Shown here: positions 1 through 5,114 of the stretch, one piece after another
Position numbering within the stretch: the first letter of the stretch is position 1
Layout: every line of letters starts with the position of its first letter
Notes under the pieces: generated by a model
The model's database searches: none
Told to the model about the DNA's origin: nothing
The model's input: only the letters and a program-made list of their open reading frames with translations
Translations under genes and position numbers: made by a program
Source: PVC group bacterium
Lineage (GTDB): Bacteria > GCA-001730085 > JADFSZ01
Reading direction: 5' to 3'
DNA: 5,114 nt
Assembly (NCBI GenBank): GCA_022560555.1
Contig: JADFSZ010000129.1
Coordinates: forward strand, 1-5,114

Positions 1-2
1 AA

Positions 3-572
3 GTTGGGCGTGCTCAAAGTATATCCTTTCGTCTTACAGCCGTTAATCCCTCCAGCAGCAAGACTCAAACGACGGAAATTAAAGGCTACCTCCCGAAAGA
101 AGTGCAACCCGGAGATATTATCGATGATGCCGGCCTGGAAGTTTTTTATGATGAGCAAAAGGGTTTGTACTATGTTTATCGCGGCTCTATACAATTAGCT
201 CCGAAAGAAATCAGATTGTTTGAGATTCAAGTCAATGATATCTGGGTGATTCCTGAGACAGAGTTAACCTCATACAATGAAACGACCGAATCCCTTTTAG
301 AACTTCTCATTGGCACAGATTATTATGCTAAAGCCGATACAATTGCCTACGGTATTTTTGATCGGATAGGGCAGATACGTACCTCTCAAGAGGATGACAC
401 CCAAACGAAAGAAGAACATATCGGCTCATTTCGGGCGAATCAGGTCATTCTGGACAAGATCAAAGAGGATATTGCCCGTCTGGAAAAGATTGTTGTTGTG
501 CCGGCGGTCCTTTGGCTCCGGACATGCTCGCGGATGCGGACATCAAATCAGACTCGCCGACAAAGACGATGA
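3..572 (+). CDS. Hypothetical protein, 5'-truncated at the window edge (beta-rich N-part, charged helical C-part); co-oriented with the ATPase genes and abutting them
   Basis: Frame 3 is open from base 3 with no stop until TGA 570-572. The track's start at 102 (GTG) is only the first in-window start codon. Translation reads VGRAQSISFRLTAVNPSSSKTQTTEIKGYLPKEVQPGDIIDDAGLEVFYDEQKGLYYVYRGSIQLAPKEIRLFEIQVNDIWVIPETE..., followed by a helical-looking stretch ...FRANQVILDKIKEDIARLEKIVV. I recognise no family by eye. The 3' end is uncertain: the last ~25 codons (PAVLWLRTCSRMRTSNQTRRQRR) look less protein-like than the overlapping frame 2. Confidence 0.6.
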   Translation, partial: VGRAQSISFRLTAVNPSSSKTQTTEIKGYLPKEVQPGDIIDDAGLEVFYDEQKGLYYVYRGSIQLAPKEIRLFEIQVNDIWVIPETELTSYNETTESLLELLIGTDYYAKADTIAYGIFDRIGQIRTSQEDDTQTKEEHIGSFRANQVILDKIKEDIARLEKIVVVPAVLWLRTCSRMRTSNQTRRQRR

Positions 573-736
573 CATGGATCGTGATTTTTTCCATTATTGT
601 ATTCACGGCCATTATTGCCGGGGTGCTTTTCTTTACCTGGCAGCACCAAGCCCGCCTTTCTCATGAAGCATTAAGTGAATCACGTAACGAAGCATTTCCT
701 GAAGACGATGATGACTCCAAAAAGGAGGAATCTTAG
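569..736 (+). CDS. Small single-pass membrane protein with an acidic C-terminal tail (55 aa); alternatively the frameshifted C-terminal TM anchor of the upstream protein
   Basis: ATG 569-571 overlaps the upstream stop TGA 570-572 (ATGA coupling motif). Translation is MTWIVIFSIIVFTAIIAGVLFFTWQHQARLSHEALSESRNEAFPEDDDDSKKEES, with one clear hydrophobic helix followed by an acidic tail. There is no convincing SD before 569. Frame 2 is already open from 398 and reads plausibly from ~500 (GGPLAPDMLADADIKSDSPTKT), so TTG 512 or ATG 524 starts, or a frameshift fusion, remain possible. Confidence 0.4.
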   Translation: MTWIVIFSIIVFTAIIAGVLFFTWQHQARLSHEALSESRNEAFPEDDDDSKKEES

Positions 737-749
737 AGCTTGGGCACTT

Positions 750-986
750 ATGATTAAACTCGACGTATCTATCCTGAATCCCGAAAAAGTGGTTTTTAGA
801 GGTGAAGCCAAAAGCGTGATCTGTCCCGGGGAAAATGGTGTGATGGAAATACTGCCTCATCACAAACGCCTCATAGGACGGCTCCTTCGAGGGTGGCTCA
901 TTGTTGACAGTTCGAAAATTAAAATTCGAAAAGGTCTTATCAAAGTGGCTCTCAATAAAGTTGTTATCATTATAGAGGAATATTAG
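750..986 (+). CDS. atpC: F1 epsilon subunit, minimal form (78 aa, beta-sandwich only)
   Basis: MIKLDVSILNPEKVVFRGEAKSVICPGENGVMEILPHHKRLIGRLLRGWLIVDSSKIKIRKGLIKVALNKVVIIIEEY aligns by eye along its full length with the N-terminal domain of E. coli and Bacillus PS3 epsilon (LDVVSAEQQMFSG...GELGIYPGHAPLL...PG / GELGILPGHIPLV). I prefer ATG 750 to the track's GTG 675 because epsilon homology begins at M-x-x-L-x-V. AGGAGG 723-728 lies 21 nt upstream, which is long, and only a weak GGG sits 5 nt upstream. Stop TAG 984-986 lies 1 nt before the next ATG. Confidence 0.8.
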   Translation: MIKLDVSILNPEKVVFRGEAKSVICPGENGVMEILPHHKRLIGRLLRGWLIVDSSKIKIRKGLIKVALNKVVIIIEEY

Positions 987-987
987 G

Positions 988-1227
988 ATGTCGAGAAATA
1001 TAGCGTTAACGCTGATTTTCGGAGCTTGTATCATGGGGCCGTGCATGGTGTTTGCCGCGAGTTCTTTCGCGAGCATTATCGCTTTGGGGCGGAATCCGTC
1101 AGCCGCTCCCAAGGTATTCACGGCACTTGTTTTGGGTTTGGTGTTTGCGCAGACCCTAGCCATTGTCGCGATCTTAGTCGTGTTTCAATTGTATTTGCCG
1201 ACGGAAGCAATTTTGTCGCACACATAA
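988..1227 (+). CDS. atpE: Fo subunit c-like protein, paralog 1 (79 aa), with Gln at the ion-binding carboxylate position
   Basis: Two-helix hairpin with the c-family polar loop GRNPS (compare ARQP in bacteria, ARNPS in mitochondria). Phe at +7 and Gly at +13 after the loop Pro are kept, but position +18 is Gln55 (CAG 1150-1152). SD GAGGA 975-979 lies 8 nt before ATG 988. Helix 1 lacks the GxGxGxG motif and has MGPC instead. Confidence 0.75.
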   Translation: MSRNIALTLIFGACIMGPCMVFAASSFASIIALGRNPSAAPKVFTALVLGLVFAQTLAIVAILVVFQLYLPTEAILSHT

Positions 1228-1261
1228 TTTGCTTGTTCCCGTGGCCGATAAGAGGGAGTTT

Positions 1262-1498
1262 ATGAATCGGAATATGGAGCTTACGCTTATTTTTTTATTT
1301 GTTGTTATGGGGCCGTGTTGTGTCTATGCCGTAAGTTGTTTTACGAGCATTTTGTCCTTAGGACGAAATCCGGACAGGGCTCCAAAAATTTTTATGGCTT
1401 TAGTCATCGGATTAACAGTTGTGCAGATAATAGCTATGGCGGGCGTGCTGATTGCGTATCAGACCTATTTACCGAACGAAACGGCTCTAACTCAATAA
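1262..1498 (+). CDS. atpE: Fo subunit c-like protein, paralog 2 (78 aa), with Gln at the ion-binding carboxylate position
   Basis: MNRNMELTLIFLFVVMGPCCVYAVSCFTSILSLGRNPDRAPKIFMALVIGLTVVQIIAMAGVLIAYQTYLPNETALTQ is collinear without gaps with paralog 1, with about half the residues identical by hand count (41/78). It has the same GRNP loop and the same Gln55 (CAG 1424-1426). I prefer ATG 1262 to the track's TTG 1229 because it matches paralog 1's MSRN/MNRN start and follows SD GAGGGAG 1252-1258. Confidence 0.75.
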   Translation: MNRNMELTLIFLFVVMGPCCVYAVSCFTSILSLGRNPDRAPKIFMALVIGLTVVQIIAMAGVLIAYQTYLPNETALTQ

Positions 1499-1508
1499 TG
1501 GGGTCTCT

Positions 1509-2231
1509 ATGTTAATTGTATCGATGGTTCTTTTTCAAATCTTAATGGTTGTCGGGCTTATAGTGATTTTTCGAAAGATTTTAAATCAAAATGTGTCTTC
1601 GGCTACGCGGCATTTGGAAAGCATGAACGAAGAATATGTTAAAAAAGAGAAGGAGCTGAATTGCCGGCTTGAAGAAATCGATGACGCGTCGAATGAAAAG
1701 ATTCAAAAAGCCACCGAAGAGGGTGAGGAGGAGAGGAAAAAAATATTAGATGAAGCCGAAGGCCAAAAGCAGCACATCATCAATGATGCCCGCAATCAGG
1801 CAAAAATGATTGTGGATCAAGCCGAGAAAACACGCGATCTATTAATTTTAGAAATAGATGATCGTATCACCCAGGAAGGGCTGGGTAAAGCGTGTGAGCT
1901 GATTCAGCATTGTCTTCCCGAAGAATTCAAGAGAGAAATTCATACCCGGTGGGTTAAAGAATTATTGGAAAACGGATTCGAAAACGCGGATCATATGCAG
2001 GTAGATAAAAGTGTGGAAGAAGCCAAGATACGTACAGCATTCACATTAAGTGAAACTGATATGGAAAATATACAAAAGCGAATTTCAGAGTATCTTAAAC
2101 ATGATGTCCGTATCACACAAGAGACGGATTCTAAGCTTGTCGCGGGGATTGTTGTGACGATAGGAAGTTTGGTTTTTGACGGAAGTTTAAATAATCGGGT
2201 TCAGGAGCAAGTGAGTGCACAGTCAAAATAA
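1509..2231 (+). CDS. atpH: Peripheral-stalk fusion protein: b-like N-terminal TM helix and charged coiled coil fused to a delta/OSCP-like C-terminal domain (240 aa)
   Basis: The N-terminus MLIVSMVLFQILMVVGLIVIFRKIL is a single TM helix. It is followed by a long Glu/Lys-rich helix (EEYVKKEKELNCRLEEIDDASNEKIQKATEEGEEERKKILDEAEGQKQHIINDARNQAKMIVDQAEK), as in subunit b. The C-terminus AKIRTAFTLSETDMENIQKRISEYLKHDVRITQETDSKLVAGIVVTIGSLVFDGSLNNRVQEQ matches E. coli delta's C-terminus (...[55 protein letters not shown]). GGGG 1500-1503 lies 5 nt before ATG 1509. Confidence 0.75.
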   Translation: MLIVSMVLFQILMVVGLIVIFRKILNQNVSSATRHLESMNEEYVKKEKELNCRLEEIDDASNEKIQKATEEGEEERKKILDEAEGQKQHIINDARNQAKMIVDQAEKTRDLLILEIDDRITQEGLGKACELIQHCLPEEFKREIHTRWVKELLENGFENADHMQVDKSVEEAKIRTAFTLSETDMENIQKRISEYLKHDVRITQETDSKLVAGIVVTIGSLVFDGSLNNRVQEQVSAQSK

Positions 2232-2242
2232 AGGGGAATACC

Positions 2243-3724
2243 GTGCATGAAGAAAAAGTAATCAACCGTAAATCTCAGGCTCAATTTGATGTCCGCGAGG
2301 TCGGGTACGTCGAATCTATCCGTCAATTTGTCGTCATTGCTAAGGGCTTGCCATTTTGTATGAACGGACAAATTGTTGAATTTGCAAATAAGGTTTTGGG
2401 TCTTGTGATTGGTTTTACTGAACATGAAATCCAGATTCTCGTATTGGGAAGTGCCGCGGATATTCGCGCGGGGGATGAAATTTACAATAAAGGCAAAACC
2501 TTGACTCTCCCGGTCGGCGATGGGTTCGTCGGACGAATTGTGAACGGATTGTGTCAGCCTCAAGACGGATTGGGTCCCATTGAGGCGGATGATCATTTTC
2601 CTGTCTTTCGTGTAGCTCTCGGAGTGATGGAGAGACAGCCCGTGGTCAAAACGTTTGAAACGGGAACTCTGATTCTTGATGCGATCATTCCAACAGCAAA
2701 AGGACAGCGTCAGCTTCTCATTGGGGACCGCTTGACCGGGAAAACGACTGTGGCGATGGATGCCATCCTCAATCAAAAAGGAAAAGATGTTATTTGCATC
2801 TACTGCTGTATCGGTAAACCCTACTCGAGTCTTGTCAAAATCGTAGATTTACTGCAGGAACATGATGCCTTAAAACACACCATCATTGTAACGGGAGTCG
2901 CGTCGTTGTCAACGGGGGAGCAGTATTTGGCTCCTTATACCGCGTGCATGTTGGGGGAGTACTTTATGTTTCAAGGAAAAGATGTGTTTGTCGTTTTTGA
3001 TGATTTGACAAAACACGCGTGGATTTATCGCCAGATTTCCCTTCTTTTAGAGCGTTCGCCCGGACGCGAGGCTTATCCGGGAGATATCTTTTATCTGCAT
3101 TCGCAATTGATGGAAAGAGCCGGGTATTTGAATGAAGAACGGGGTGGGGGATCCATGACTTTTTTCCCCGTTGTGGAAATCTTGCAGGGTGATCTTACGG
3201 GATATATTTCTACCAATATTATCTCCATGACAGACGGGCAATTGTATTTTTCAACGGATCTGATTAAAAAAGGTTTTTTGCCGGCGATTGATTTTGGTCT
3301 GTCGGTGTCCCGTATCGGAAACAAAGCGCAGTGGAGTGCTATGAGAGATGTCAGTAAAATGCTCCGGCTTGAATACATTCAATACAAAGAACTTCTCAAG
3401 ATGACACAGATGCAAGGAGCCTCTGTCACCGAAGACGCCCAAAACAAACTGAGGCGCGGAGAGGCCATCAATGTTCTCATCAACCAATATCGAAACGAGC
3501 CTGTTTCCATAGAAGCCCAGATCGTTTATCTCTACGCGTTGGATAAGGGGTTTCTCGACAGTCTCTCTAAAGAGCAGGTAGGGGTGTTTAAAAAAGATGT
3601 TTGTTCCTTTCTTGAAAAAAAATATCCGAATATTTTTCAAGAGCTTCGGGAAAATCAGGATTTGAATGACGAAATGAAGAAAAAGCTTGAAGCCGGTTTC
3701 AAAGATTATGCGAGTAAAATCTAA
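2243..3724 (+). CDS. atpA: F1 alpha subunit (493 aa)
   Basis: Walker A is GDRLTGKT (canonical GDRQTGKT). [22 protein letters not shown] matches [58 protein letters not shown] matches [36 protein letters not shown], with the Arg-finger Arg retained. GTG start at 2243 follows AAGGGG 2231-2236. Stop TAA 3722-3724. Confidence 0.97.
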   Translation: [493 protein letters not shown]

Positions 3725-3776
3725 GATAGAAGGGATAGGATACGCTACATTGTTTATTAAATTCAGGGAATCAACA

Positions 3777-3846
3777 CCAGATTTTCAGGTCTGCCAATTG
3801 GGGATAACGCCGGATTTGCCATAACCTACGGTTCTGCAAAATCTGG
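3777..3846 (+). promoter_or_regulatory. Long-range inverted repeat (possible RNA stem) inside the alpha-gamma spacer
   Basis: CCAGATTTT (3777-3785) is perfectly complementary to AAAATCTGG (3838-3846). The stem extends by CAG 3786-3788 / CTG 3834-3836 across a 1-nt bulge (C3837) and encloses ~45 nt that contain the palindrome CCAATTGG (3794-3801). Function unknown. Confidence 0.3.
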
Positions 3847-3850
3847 CACG

Positions 3851-3866
3851 GGCTACTTGGGTAGCC
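3851..3866 (+). promoter_or_regulatory. Perfect 6-bp hairpin abutting the gamma Shine-Dalgarno
   Basis: GGCTAC-TTGG-GTAGCC (3851-3866). It is followed by GATT, then GGGGG 3871-3875 (SD), then GTG 3880. No U-tract follows, so it is not an intrinsic terminator. It could be an mRNA processing, stability or translation-control element. Confidence 0.3.
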
Positions 3867-3879
3867 GATTGGGGGTAAA

Positions 3880-4725
3880 GTGAAAACCCTTTCGCAAATC
3901 AAAAAAGATATGGAGTTTAATAAGGATCTGACTGTGTTAATCGAGGCCCTAAAATCTATTGCCATCGGGGAATATTATGCCCTCGAAAAAAAAATAAAAT
4001 TTTATAAAAAATATTTGGCAAGTGTTGAGAGTTTTTTTGAATATATTGATGTGGAGACGATCAATCATCCGTTTGTGAAGCCGCGAACACATAAGCAGGC
4101 TGTGATTGCCATTACGTCGGACGCGGGTTTTTTGGGGGGTGTGAACATGCGCGTGGTTCATGCCGCGCTCCATGAAGCCGAAAATATGCCGACAACACTC
4201 CTTGTCGTCGGAGAGCGTGGAAAAATGTATGTTCCAAGCGGGCTTCATTCTCTTGTGAGTTTCCCCGGGATAAGCGAGGAATCCCGTTTTGAACAGTCAA
4301 TACAAATGAGAAATTATCTTGTCAAGCAAGTCCTTTCAGGCGCTTATGATACCGTCAAGCTTGTGTATCCAAAGCCCGTATCCATGATGGTCCAGCATGT
4401 TGAGGTTGTTCAATTTCTGCCTTTTCGTCCGTCCAATACGAAGCTGGCTCCTCCGGCGGTCATAGCGAATACTATTATGGAATCCCGTCTGGAAGACACT
4501 GTTGAGTATCTTGTGACTTTATGGATGGGAGAGATGCTCTTTGAAATATTTGGATTAAGCCGCTTAGCCGAGTTTTCAGCACGTTATTTTCACCTGGAAG
4601 AGAGTAATGAAAAATTGAATGATGAAAACAAAAAGATTCAGTTACAGTATTTTCGTATCCGTCATGAGCTTATTGACAGATCCATGCGCGAACTATTCGC
4701 GGGAAGGGCTACACGTGGACGTTAG
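3880..4725 (+). CDS. atpG: F1 gamma subunit, divergent (281 aa)
   Basis: The length and position between alpha and beta fit gamma. ITSDAGFLGGVNMRVVH matches canonical VSTDRGLCGGLNINLFK. The C-terminal helix LQYFRIRHELIDRSMRELFAG matches [22 protein letters not shown]. The N-terminal helix SQIKKDMEFNKDLTVLIEALKSIAIGEY resembles [27 protein letters not shown] only loosely. GTG 3880 follows GGGGG 3871-3875. Stop TAG 4723-4725. Confidence 0.85.
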   Translation: MKTLSQIKKDMEFNKDLTVLIEALKSIAIGEYYALEKKIKFYKKYLASVESFFEYIDVETINHPFVKPRTHKQAVIAITSDAGFLGGVNMRVVHAALHEAENMPTTLLVVGERGKMYVPSGLHSLVSFPGISEESRFEQSIQMRNYLVKQVLSGAYDTVKLVYPKPVSMMVQHVEVVQFLPFRPSNTKLAPPAVIANTIMESRLEDTVEYLVTLWMGEMLFEIFGLSRLAEFSARYFHLEESNEKLNDENKKIQLQYFRIRHELIDRSMRELFAGRATRGR

Positions 4726-5114
4726 TAGTGATAAAGCAAAAATAATCGGGAAAGTTGTGGCGGTGCAGGGGCCGGTTGTGGATGTGAAATTCGAGACGCA
4801 ACAAGAAGTCCCGAATGTTTTTGGCCTTATCACTACGTATACCATCGATAAGGAAGAAGTGTTTTTGGAAGTGGCCGAACATTTGCCAGGGAATATCGCG
4901 CGTTGTATTGCTATTCATTCCACGATTAATATTCCACGTTTTGCCAAAGCTTATAATCTCGGGAAACCCATCGAAATTCCTGTAGGGGATGCTATGTATG
5001 GGCGACTTGTGAATGTTTTGGGGCATCCCATTGACAAAGGAGGGGAGATAAAGTCGGATGAGACCATGCCGATTCGAAAAGCTCATATGGGCAGCCTCAT
5101 TAACACAAGTGAGA
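4715..5114 (+). CDS. atpD: F1 beta subunit, N-terminal ~133 codons (3'-truncated by the window edge)
   Basis: This ORF is not in the supplied track because it has no in-window stop. Frame 2 is open from 4619 to 5114. Translation is (M)DVSSDKAKIIGKVVAVQGPVVDVKFETQQEVPNVFGLITTYTIDKEEVFLEVAEHLPGNIARCIAIHSTINIPRFAKAYNLGKPIEIPVGDAMYGRLVNVLGHPIDKGGEIKSDETMPIRKAHMGSL. It matches E. coli beta ([27 protein letters not shown]...[27 protein letters not shown]...[28 protein letters not shown]...IHR). I propose GTG 4715 as the start, preceded by GGGAAGGG 4701-4708 and overlapping the gamma stop by 11 nt. The P-loop lies beyond the window. Confidence 0.9.
   Translation, partial: MDVSSDKAKIIGKVVAVQGPVVDVKFETQQEVPNVFGLITTYTIDKEEVFLEVAEHLPGNIARCIAIHSTINIPRFAKAYNLGKPIEIPVGDAMYGRLVNVLGHPIDKGGEIKSDETMPIRKAHMGSLINTSE

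Follow-up and report, generated by a model that had tools for sequence, protein, structure and literature searches.

An F1Fo-like ATPase gene cluster without a detectable subunit a, adjoining secretion and pilus genes in Omnitrophota

What work could be done by an F-type ATPase whose genes are accompanied by no recognizable subunit a? The question is raised by a locus of a PVC group bacterium (GCA_022560555.1, contig JADFSZ010000129.1, positions 1-5,114 of the forward strand), which we refer to as the window, meaning the entire 5,114-nt stretch analyzed.

Gene content of the locus

ORF and profile analysis of the window confirmed what an initial annotation had observed, namely the order epsilon-c-c-(b-delta)-alpha-gamma-beta with neither a subunit a nor a stand-alone delta. 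The complete order is X-epsilon-c1-c2-(b-delta)-alpha-gamma-beta, all on the plus strand:

3-736, + strand: X, 3' part; split ORFs 3-572 (frame 3) and 512-736 (frame 2)
750-986, + strand: epsilon, 78 aa; Pfam ATP-synt_DE_N alone matched
988-1227, + strand: c1, 79 aa, c-subunit-like hairpin
1262-1498, + strand: c2, 78 aa, second c paralog
1509-2231, + strand: b-delta(C) fusion, 240 aa; C-terminal part of OSCP, E 1.7e-13
2243-3724, + strand: alpha, 493 aa, canonical F1 type
3725-3879, no strand: alpha-gamma spacer, 155 nt
3880-4725, + strand: gamma, 281 aa, strongly divergent
4715-5114, + strand: beta, N-terminal 133 codons; GTG start at 4715, 11-nt overlap with the end of gamma, cut at the window end

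The intergenic gaps are, in order, 13, 1, 34, 10, 11, 155 and -11 nt. Strand and spacing were thus annotated correctly, but the nine genes originally counted become eight once the split X is taken as one gene. Comparison with two contigs approximately 98% identical to the window (L001 and L050) places a 1-nt deletion in the X frame near window position 500, where both contigs have an additional base in ATTGTTGTTGT[T/C]GCC and read through X as one protein of 268 aa (P0016, which matches the L001 X at 100% identity). Forty-two further homologs, mostly of 265-290 aa, all keep a single ORF, and because these and both contigs do so, the "X" and "small TM ORF" of the initial annotation are one gene. 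Its first ~24 codons, signal peptide included, fall upstream of the window.

A conserved head on an altered membrane sector

The alpha3beta3 head is predicted to be conventional and catalytically competent. Alpha scores 527.7 bits on TIGR00962 (cut-off 484) and up to 493 bits against F1 alpha chains in the PDB, and the full-length L001 ortholog of beta scores 563 bits on TIGR01039 (cut-off 463). The Walker A Lys of alpha is present in 48 of 49 family sequences and its Arg finger in all 49, and the catalytic Lys, Glu and Arg of beta are retained in 39 of 39. By curated HMM thresholds both subunits are canonical-type F1, and neither Mycoplasma F1-like nor N-ATPase. The central shaft has diverged further: gamma is recognized by PF00231 (E 1.6e-33) and reaches 82.5 bits on TIGR01146 against a cut-off of 194; it is 19% identical to E. 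coli gamma, with its N-terminal 62 residues outside the BLASTP alignment. Epsilon consists of the N-terminal beta-sandwich only, without the C-terminal helical hairpin; PF02823 covers residues 29-101 of a 103-aa ORF (E 1.1e-12), gene calls in L001 and L050 give 78 aa, and homologs span 78-80 aa.

The membrane sector departs most clearly at the c-ring ion site, which is Gln55 both in c1 (CAG at 1150-1152) and in c2 (CAG at 1424-1426). This position corresponds to the ion-binding Glu in solved c-ring structures. For c1, the residue opposite Gln55 is Glu in 9itj_H and in chloroplast c subunits; it is Gln in the second hairpin of the c1 subunit from Acetobacterium woodii (4bem_J). Neither window paralog has another membrane-embedded acidic residue. 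F-, V- and A-type rotors that lack the c carboxylate or another membrane acidic residue are not known to carry H+ or Na+; with Gln in both paralogs and no other such acid, the c-ring of the window would be unable to do so. The RNP loop, the part of c that binds gamma and epsilon, is invariant in the family alignment. A second c gene is confined to the window, L001 and L050 and, independently, one other locus (L031).

We see the same arrangement in about 45 loci, almost all of them from Omnitrophota; the ion site there is Gln in 26 and Glu in 16, with single cases of Gly, Val and Trp. On a simple neighbor-joining tree of alpha plus beta with only two outgroups, this site changes state 8-10 times in 100 of 100 bootstrap replicates, at least six of these changes being Glu/Gln switches within the family, and the basal branches carry Glu. 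The description of the c paralogs as carboxylate-less therefore holds for the genome of the window and fails as a trait of the lineage. The ion-binding carboxylate appears, from this alignment, to be dispensable in the family; since nearly all of the variation is between Glu and Gln, some constraint remains, and the Glu-bearing members (16 loci) may bind ions.

The peripheral stalk is encoded by the b-delta(C) fusion, in which an N-terminal TM helix and a long coiled-coil helix precede the C-terminal domain of delta/OSCP (AF2 model, pLDDT 86). Alignment by hhalign pairs it with E. coli b residues 54-142 and with E. coli delta residues 87-172 (probability 97%). The N-terminal domain of delta is missing, and the match to the OSCP profile is limited to positions 97-167. 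In the model, the C-terminal domain matches delta/OSCP and the mycobacterial b-delta fusion, with an overall shape like that of V-ATPase subunit E.

Secretion genes and gene X

No ORF resembling subunit a was found in the window, L001 or L050, or within about 10 kb on either side in about 45 loci. A query with E. coli AtpB (phmmer --max), for which the loci offered no positive control, gave no match in them, the ORFs between X and beta are all assigned, and the polytopic ORFs of the flanks are PilC, a permease or a sensor kinase. The initial annotation had proposed extending the contig in search of atpB; longer related contigs instead carry a giant adhesin-like gene upstream of X and, downstream of beta, an MshEN-domain protein, a GspE/PilB-type ATPase with MshEN and PilZ domains, GspF/PilC and pseudopilins, and the secretion genes near the ATPase also take in GspK. 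MshEN and PilZ are c-di-GMP-binding domains. We assign this downstream cluster, by its predicted products, to a type II secretion/type IV pilus-like system. GspE/PilB lies no more than 1.5 kb after the ATPase genes in 31 of 34 loci; in two of the three exceptions GspE sits inside the ATPase gene block. In one locus (L029) a permease follows beta in place of the secretion genes. In distant relatives the two sets are interleaved: epsilon is placed between GspE and GspF in L051 and L053, and in L051 b-delta and c are separated by a Peptidase_MA_2 gene. From synteny alone, the ATPase and the secretion system would be physically associated.

X also belongs to this neighborhood: in 35 of 36 loci it directly precedes the ATPase genes. 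It is a conserved, predicted bitopic periplasmic protein of ~268 aa, comprising a Sec signal peptide, a periplasmic beta-sandwich, a three-helix bundle, an AGGPLAPxMLA motif, a C-terminal TM helix and an acidic tail. Its AF2 model (pLDDT 87.6) found no fold match in the PDB below E 0.1. The TM helix is strongly conserved, with Trp residues on its flanks and a WQxQAR motif, and a conserved Arg lies at its cytoplasmic end. X is 47% identical to the C-termini of giant proteins in L002 and L003, to which it is fused, and is a stand-alone gene elsewhere; in many genomes it would anchor a giant adhesin-like protein to the membrane by its C-terminal end.

Known relatives and the most probable function

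This ATPase was already known, contrary to the novelty implied by the initial annotation: a "symbiotic" or "non-respiratory" F-type ATPase (sF-ATP) that adjoins type IV filament/pilus genes was described in Omnitrophota, with a proposed non-respiratory role in attachment or motility by analogy with Mycoplasma (Seymour et al., 2023, Nat Microbiol; PMC10066038). That study defined sF-ATP by alpha-subunit phylogeny and co-location within 10 kb, and we consider it the same system as the window cluster. New here is the subunit-level detail of the membrane sector; in the text of PMC10066038 we found no statement on gene order, the absent subunit a, the variable c carboxylate, the b-delta(C) fusion, the short epsilon, X or the interleaving with GspE and GspF. 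The same study places alpha with Mycoplasma types 2 and 3, an affinity that our HMM scores do not echo. The Mycoplasma F1-like ATPases of type 2 (the M. mobile gliding G1-ATPase, MMOB1660/1670) and type 3 (MSC_0618/0619) likewise derive from F1 alpha and beta, were recruited beyond ATP synthesis, have no subunit a and are tied to cell-surface machinery. Alpha and beta of the window cluster, however, score higher on canonical atpA/atpD than on the Mycoplasma F1-like models, which we rejected at 393 and 446 bits (cut-offs 600 and 850) and at 298 and 395 bits (cut-offs 520 and 570). The M. mobile G1 beta reaches 352 bits, whereas canonical F1 beta chains in the PDB all fall at 406-485 bits; beta here lacks the ~230-residue N-terminal extension of MMOB1670, and the Omnitrophota system, unlike the Mycoplasma ones, keeps c-like, b-like and delta-like parts.

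With canonical F1Fo (atpIBEFHAGDC) the cluster shares alpha and beta above equivalog cut-offs, the catalytic residues, the gamma and epsilon folds and a two-helix c hairpin with its RNP loop. It differs in having no a, no I, no stand-alone delta, no delta N-terminal domain and no epsilon C-terminal domain, in its unconserved c carboxylate, in a gamma far below cut-off, in gene order and in its embedding among secretion genes. N-ATPases, whose order is reportedly atpDCQRBEFAG, resemble it in having no separate delta and a long b with a delta-like C-terminal end, and the best NCBIfam match of b-delta(C) is alt_F1F0_F0_B (E 1.3e-13). Membership was nevertheless rejected on model scores (51, 506, 488 and 27 bits against cut-offs of 225, 750, 752 and 282); the cluster has a different order and no AtpQ, AtpR or subunit a, and its c-ring ion site is not conserved. 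The hybrid c-ring of A. woodii (4bem), whose c1 second hairpin has Gln for Glu in register with Gln55 of the window c1, belongs to a normal Na+-coupled synthase with a subunit a and has only one hairpin without a carboxylate, whereas both c copies of our cluster carry Gln.

Context and sequence thus argue, as the initial annotation had, for a distinct F1Fo-like lineage without subunit a and with a role other than ATP synthesis; its interpretation as a whole is partly supported. Because no ion channel subunit was found, the ion-binding residue is not needed and the genes lie in a secretion/pilus cluster, ATP is most likely burnt for mechanical work rather than synthesized. We place the window in the "symbiotic" F1Fo-like ATPase module of Omnitrophota and consider this module to be, probably, an ATP-hydrolyzing motor, not coupled to ions, for a secretion/adhesin apparatus. 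Such a complex, its epsilon lacking the inhibitory C-terminal helices, would hydrolyze ATP to turn or strain a gamma-epsilon-c-ring assembly anchored in the inner membrane, with one or two c-like hairpins keeping the RNP loop and a single-pass b-delta(C) stalk, and would transport no ions. The torque would act on some partner, with X, GspF or another protein as candidates. The Omnitrophota that carry it are tiny, predatory bacteria, and the work may be spent on the secretion/pilus apparatus or on the giant surface protein anchored by X, as the cell attaches to its host or prey.

An unlikely alternative is that the complex exports or unfolds proteins and generates no torque, an alpha3beta3-gamma assembly tethered by b-delta(C) supplying the energy to bring pseudopilins or the giant protein to membrane machinery, with the c-like proteins as a static anchor only. 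The FliI-FliH-FliJ complex (SctN-SctL-SctO), in which an F1-related ATPase works inside a secretion nanomachine with a tether resembling b/delta and a stalk resembling gamma, offers a functional analogy only, being a homohexamer with a type III partner and no c-like ring. This reading would suit the dispensable ion site, the position within a secretion system beside a giant exported protein, and the long helix and globular domain of b-delta(C), an architecture seen in V-type subunit E and reportedly shared by FliH/YscL. Against it, the head is still of the heterohexamer type, built from alpha and beta and accompanied by a full gamma and epsilon, the gamma/epsilon-binding loop of c is invariant, as would suit a rotor, FliI/SctN models give about 190 bits compared with 563 for F1, and at least X, with its signal peptide, uses Sec.

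It is improbable that the cluster encodes a working ion-coupled ATP synthase or ATPase with its subunit a elsewhere and Gln as a tolerated or regulatory variant of c. Split atp operons are known in other bacteria, NCBI annotates the genes as F0F1 ATP synthase subunits, and canonical head scores and the 16 Glu-bearing loci fit such an enzyme; the acid-free c paralogs of the window, the repeated changes at the c site, the flanks searched in vain for subunit a and the interleaving with GspE and GspF speak against it, as does the possession by many Omnitrophota of V/A-type or separate "respiratory" F-type enzymes. Also very improbable, in our view, is a stand-in for subunit a in the relatives with Glu: the one TM helix of X and that of b-delta would make up a minimal stator or ion path, and the Gln forms, window included, would be derived and uncoupled. 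The constant adjacency of X, its well-conserved TM helix with flanking Trp and WQxQAR, and Glu in basal lineages would agree, but the conserved Arg of X lies at the cytoplasmic helix end and the PDB search gave X no fold relative; subunit a, moreover, provides two half-channels and an essential mid-membrane Arg, more than a single-pass helix or a pair of them can supply.

Decay of a former ATP synthase operon might be read from the X frameshift and from the loss of subunit a, of the N-terminal domain of delta and of the C-terminal domain of epsilon. This reading is disfavored to the point of being hardly credible, given intact ORFs in about 45 species-level genomes, retained catalytic residues, a frameshift not present in the two 98% identical contigs and overwhelmingly synonymous substitutions. 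Relative to L001, synonymous and non-synonymous changes number 13/0 in alpha (whose protein is identical), 4/0 in c1, 1/0 in epsilon and 17/0 in X; these mostly synonymous changes and the recurrence in about 45 independent loci make the arrangement more than chance. The second c gene evolves faster than the first, with 7/4 changes compared with 4/0. The alpha-gamma spacer (3725-3879), in which no Rfam match, promoter or terminator was seen, differs in length between homologs.

Gene content of the block and the X protein

An open-reading-frame (ORF) listing and profile searches of the window confirmed a co-directional block of genes on the forward strand and bore out much of what the initial annotation had described: the order epsilon-c-c-(b-delta)-alpha-gamma-beta, the intergenic distances (reproduced by the ORF listing), the lack of a stand-alone delta in the window and the lack of subunit a, for which no ORF in the window shows a resemblance. 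Its count of nine genes is corrected to eight, since X and a "small TM ORF" that had been listed separately are a single gene. The features of the window are as follows.

3-736, + strand: X, split into two frames in the window
750-986, + strand: epsilon, 78 aa, the beta-sandwich domain alone
988-1227, + strand: c1
1262-1498, + strand: c2
1509-2231, + strand: b-delta fusion
2243-3724, + strand: alpha
155 nt between alpha and gamma: spacer, plain intergenic DNA
3880-4725, + strand: gamma
4715 (GTG start) onwards, + strand: beta, truncated by the window end

The merging of the first two ORFs follows from two related contigs, L001 and L050, each ~98% identical to the window, in which one extra base in the short repeat ATTGTTGTTGT[T/C]GCC yields a single 268-aa protein (P0016), and from the homologs of X, which form one ORF in every case. 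The corresponding 1-nt deletion in the window, at ~488-512 (near 500), reflects an error of assembly or else a frameshift particular to this strain. The alpha-gamma spacer varies in length among homologs, shows neither a promoter excess nor a terminator and matches nothing in Rfam at E ≤ 1, and we treat it as plain intergenic DNA. Within this spacer L001, an ENA scaffold, carries a run of N and a duplicated alpha 3' end (L001:3717-3980), most likely a scaffold artefact arising from strain variation. Three antisense ORFs of 125-191 aa that lie over coding genes (633-1163, 2201-2776 and 4709-5086, all on the minus strand) have no family support and were taken as spurious.

X combines a Sec signal peptide with a beta-sandwich of seven strands and three long helices; invariant Trp residues flank its C-terminal TM helix, its tail is acidic, and it carries a conserved AGGPxAPEMLA motif. 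It has no Pfam or NCBIfam match, and a fold search with the confident AF2 model (pLDDT 87.6) found no PDB relative below E 0.1; nothing favoured its identification with a known component of the GspC, PilP or PilO type. In the lineage of the window and many others X stands alone at ~270 aa. In L002, L003 and many other homologous loci it forms the C-terminal ~225 residues of a giant protein, a fusion that implies a role for X as the inner-membrane anchor of a giant surface protein; as the position of X is fixed beside epsilon or alpha, this putative anchor would be tied to the ATPase. The giant protein reaches 3017 to >4100 aa on longer homologous contigs, and in L050 the neighbour upstream of X is a separate ORF, ≥1411 aa long, with abundant Thr/Ser and Ig-like repeats. 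One locus (L052:6329-7720) encodes a tandemly duplicated X of 463 aa that adjoins a giant ORF of at least 8495 aa.

The F1 head and the membrane sector

By their profile scores, alpha and beta rank as ordinary F1 subunits at the level of the canonical atpA and atpD equivalogs: the window alpha scores 527.7 bits on TIGR00962 (cut-off 484.45; 528-543 among the alphas scored) and the L001 beta 563.3 bits on TIGR01039 (cut-off 462.85; 563-565 among the betas scored). Among the family members compared (39 beta and 49 alpha), neither the Walker A Lys nor the catalytic Glu-Arg nor the alpha Arg finger varies, and the DELSEED motif is relaxed to (D/E)ELSxxD. Gamma falls below equivalog level (82.5 bits in the window and 82-90 among those scored, against a cut-off of 194.45) and shares 19% identity with E. 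coli gamma. Epsilon, at 78 aa, lacks the C-terminal helical hairpin, which inhibits hydrolysis in canonical enzymes. The b-delta fusion consists of an N-terminal TM segment and a coiled-coil helix of ~135 residues followed by the delta C-terminal domain alone, corresponding by hhalign to E. coli delta residues 87-172, so that the alpha-binding delta N-terminal domain is absent; its Foldseek matches are delta/OSCP and the mycobacterial b-delta fusion, with an overall shape like that of V-type subunit E. The system thus resembles canonical F1Fo ATP synthase in meeting the alpha and beta thresholds and keeping the catalytic residues, but the canonical enzyme has a complete delta/OSCP, an epsilon with C-terminal helices and an equivalog-level gamma, none of which occurs in the window system, and it has a subunit a with c and b, whereas the Omnitrophota cluster has none nearby.

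The initial annotation had allowed for an atpB gene just outside the window; we looked for one on L001, L050 and the longer homologous contigs and found none on either flank, nor in the window or within ~10 kb of ~45 related loci. The search combined a hydropathy screen of all ORFs with phmmer --max queries of E. coli AtpB and AtpI, and returned PilC, an ArsP permease, a PAS-HisKA kinase and noise; L047, chosen as a canonical control, itself lacks a flanking a gene, which leaves the search without a positive control.

Both c paralogs of the window carry Gln55 (CAG) at the position of the ion-binding Glu of solved c-rings. In the alignment this residue coincides as well with a Gln of Acetobacterium woodii, in the second hairpin of its c1 subunit, which lacks the carboxylate. 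The earlier description of the c proteins as carboxylate-less therefore holds for the window but not as a family trait: 26 loci have Gln at the site and 16 have Glu, with Gly found in L036, Val in L053 and Trp in one of the L031 paralogs. Canonical F1Fo has an invariant Glu/Asp there, in c helix 2. L031 (2855-3323) shows an independent second duplication of c, with Trp at the ion site of one copy and Glu in the other. The c proteins have lost the helix 1 Gly-rich motif and retain a cytoplasmic ALGRNPS.APK loop, the RQP/RNP loop by which c contacts gamma and epsilon. In a neighbor-joining (NJ) tree of alpha+beta, with E. coli and the canonical L047 as its few outgroups, the family is monophyletic and its basal branches have Glu at the c site; Fitch parsimony requires 8-10 changes at this site in 100/100 bootstrap trees, at least 6 of them within-family Glu/Gln switches. 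Because the site changes repeatedly here, and is to our knowledge invariant in ion-translocating rotors, the c-ring carboxylate is dispensable in this family. The near-restriction to Glu and Gln points to a continuing need for a polar side chain of about that size. This repeated switching would offer a natural experiment on what a c-ring needs once ion carriage is lost.

Secretion genes and distribution of the cluster

Downstream of beta, L001 encodes an MshEN-domain protein of 151 aa, with a GspE/PilB-type ATPase next in line, and longer homologous contigs extend this arrangement. Their order is giant protein, epsilon, c, b-delta, alpha, gamma and beta, followed by a small MshEN protein, an MshEN-T2SSE-PilZ ATPase, T2SSF, Peptidase_MA_2, and then a GspG-like major pseudopilin, minor pseudopilins and a GspK-like protein. 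Scanning species-representative genomes with the b-delta alignment, we recovered 42 loci with almost identical gene maps, nearly all of them titled Candidatus Omnitrophota. The neighbourhood comparison that the initial annotation had proposed placed X next to the ATPase genes, directly upstream, in 35 of the 36 informative loci; a GspE/PilB gene lies ≤1.5 kb after beta in 31 of 34, and GspE lies within the ATPase block in two more. The b-delta architecture is represented by 135 clusters at E ≤ 1e-30 in a library of 1.84 billion proteins, and homologs and loci alike come almost entirely from Candidatus Omnitrophota/Omnitrophica MAGs and SAGs, the contig nearest to the window being titled 'PVC group bacterium'.

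Low-scoring b-delta-like representatives might have been N-ATPase b subunits, an assignment that we rejected; the contigs of three proteins matching their profile (L051-L053) carry distant versions of the Omnitrophota system with ATPase and secretion genes interleaved. Epsilon lies between GspE and GspF in L051 and L053, a Peptidase_MA_2 gene separates b-delta from c in L051, and alpha precedes epsilon in L052, L045 and L046. Such interleaving is stronger evidence than proximity alone for what, from gene order, would be one functional unit.

Several loci depart from the common plan or add to it. A stand-alone MshEN protein of ~150 aa is encoded between beta and GspE/PilB in ~30 loci (for example L001:6352-6807 and L002:14362-14832), and its gene often overlaps the beta 3' end; since MshEN domains bind c-di-GMP, this protein may be a regulator common to both ATPases. 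L029 has an ArsP-type permease after beta (8173-9234) and is the sole locus without secretion genes there. In the distant relative L053, genes inserted between X and c (4432-9623) encode a bAvd/23S_rRNA_IVP protein, an accessory-like protein of diversity-generating retroelements, and two nucleotidyltransferase/HepT toxin-antitoxin pairs, with a response-regulator-GGDEF protein directly upstream of c; the bAvd protein hints at possible diversification of the giant protein and the GGDEF protein at c-di-GMP control. Two full giant-X-ATPase-secretion clusters from one MAG, STD1_64 (L009 and L043, contig coverage ~49x vs ~15x), represent paralogous systems or else two strains that share one bin.

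Known relatives and possible function

The initial annotation had proposed a distinct, possibly repurposed F1Fo-like lineage. Its functional idea agrees with published work and its implied novelty falls, as both system and idea were described by Seymour et al. (2023; PMC10066038), who reported a non-respiratory 'symbiotic' F-type ATPase adjoining type-4a pilus clusters in 56/111 species of the class Velamenicoccia and in all Omnitrophota classes. On 57/66 contigs it lay within 10 kb of a pilus cluster, and the authors drew on the Mycoplasma parallel to suggest that it serves attachment or motility. The window family matches this ATPase in being encoded by Omnitrophota and in lying ≤10 kb from type IV filament genes, with MshEN and GspE/PilB directly after beta in L001. 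We found nothing in the text and supplements of that study on subunit a, subunit c, epsilon, X, the b-delta fusion or interleaved genes, and our literature search found no other description of the system; the subunit-level anatomy appears to be new detail.

The same authors separated the symbiotic alpha from a 'respiratory' alpha and grouped it with Mycoplasma types 2/3 (Seymour et al., 2023), whereas our HMM scores favour canonical alpha; we judged the Mycoplasma relationship from HMM and PDB scores, and our NJ tree compared the family with E. coli and L047. The type 2/3 F1-like models (MMOB1660/1670 and MSC_0619/0618) gave 393, 446, 298 and 395 bits against cut-offs of 600, 850, 520 and 570 and were rejected. 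MMOB1670 has a long N-terminal extension, and the Omnitrophota beta aligns only to positions 229-689 of the 705 in its model; canonical F1 beta chains in the PDB all score 406-485 bits against 352 for the M. mobile G1 beta. An N-ATPase was also rejected, as the atpDCQRBEFAG order differs, AtpQ, AtpR and subunit a are absent, and scores on the alt_F1F0 models for alpha, beta, gamma and b all fall well short of the cut-offs.

Sequence and synteny, from which all of our inferences derive, indicate an F1-type head with its catalytic residues intact, a gamma-epsilon-c set resembling a rotor and a single-pass stator stalk. Subunit a is absent nearby, the ion site is dispensable, and in the genome the ATPase is obligatorily coupled to X and to a type IV filament system in which c-di-GMP-binding domains abound. 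In the reading that we favour, the complex probably hydrolyses ATP, moves no ions, and passes mechanical work to the secretion/pilus machine or the X-anchored giant protein. If this is correct, a rotary ATPase that once converted energy by ion coupling would now be a purely mechanical secretion/pilus part that burns ATP. A bolder reading, which we hold tentatively, would make the system a third way of using the rotary F1Fo architecture: an ATP-driven rotor of alpha3beta3, gamma, epsilon and c-ring that would have shed its ion channel and ion-binding site and been plugged mechanically into a type II secretion/type IV pilus-like machine and the giant-adhesin anchor X, with c-ring rotation perhaps driving filament assembly or rotation, or adhesin tension in predation, under c-di-GMP control through MshEN and PilZ. 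Members of the phylum Omnitrophota are ultrasmall predators or parasites, and we know of no pure culture.

A FliI-like export ATPase with the c proteins as a static anchor seems to us doubtful; the FliI/SctN complex is homohexameric, whereas the Omnitrophota system has an alpha/beta pair. As a class assignment, a type III/flagellar export ATPase was rejected on best scores of 172-199 bits against cut-offs of 380-619. A true ion-coupled enzyme with subunit a encoded elsewhere would be improbable, particularly for the window genome, because every c copy there has Gln, and we consider it highly improbable that X and b together act as a minimal substitute for subunit a. A decayed former ATP synthase operon is effectively excluded by conservation: synonymous and non-synonymous differences from L001 number 13/0 in alpha, 4/0 in c1 and 17/0 in X, and this pattern argues that the ATPase genes and X of the window are under purifying selection.

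As alpha and beta pass the standard atpA/atpD thresholds, annotation pipelines score such genomes as having an "incomplete F1Fo ATP synthase", which would distort metabolic reconstructions of Omnitrophota. A 2026 preprint reads the same genes as 'incomplete F1F0', with alpha/beta in 125/176 genomes and gamma in 30/176, and reports V/A-type ATPase subunits in 70-99% of most Gorgyraeia (a class of Omnitrophota), a pattern that fits a separate, real ATP synthase alongside a divergent F1Fo-like module. Among the homologous loci, L013, L019, L020, L032, L039-L042 and L046 are titled 'uncultured Planctomycetales/Planctomycetia' or 'Margulisiibacteriota' and carry an Omnitrophota-type cluster; these titles are probably loose taxonomic labels.
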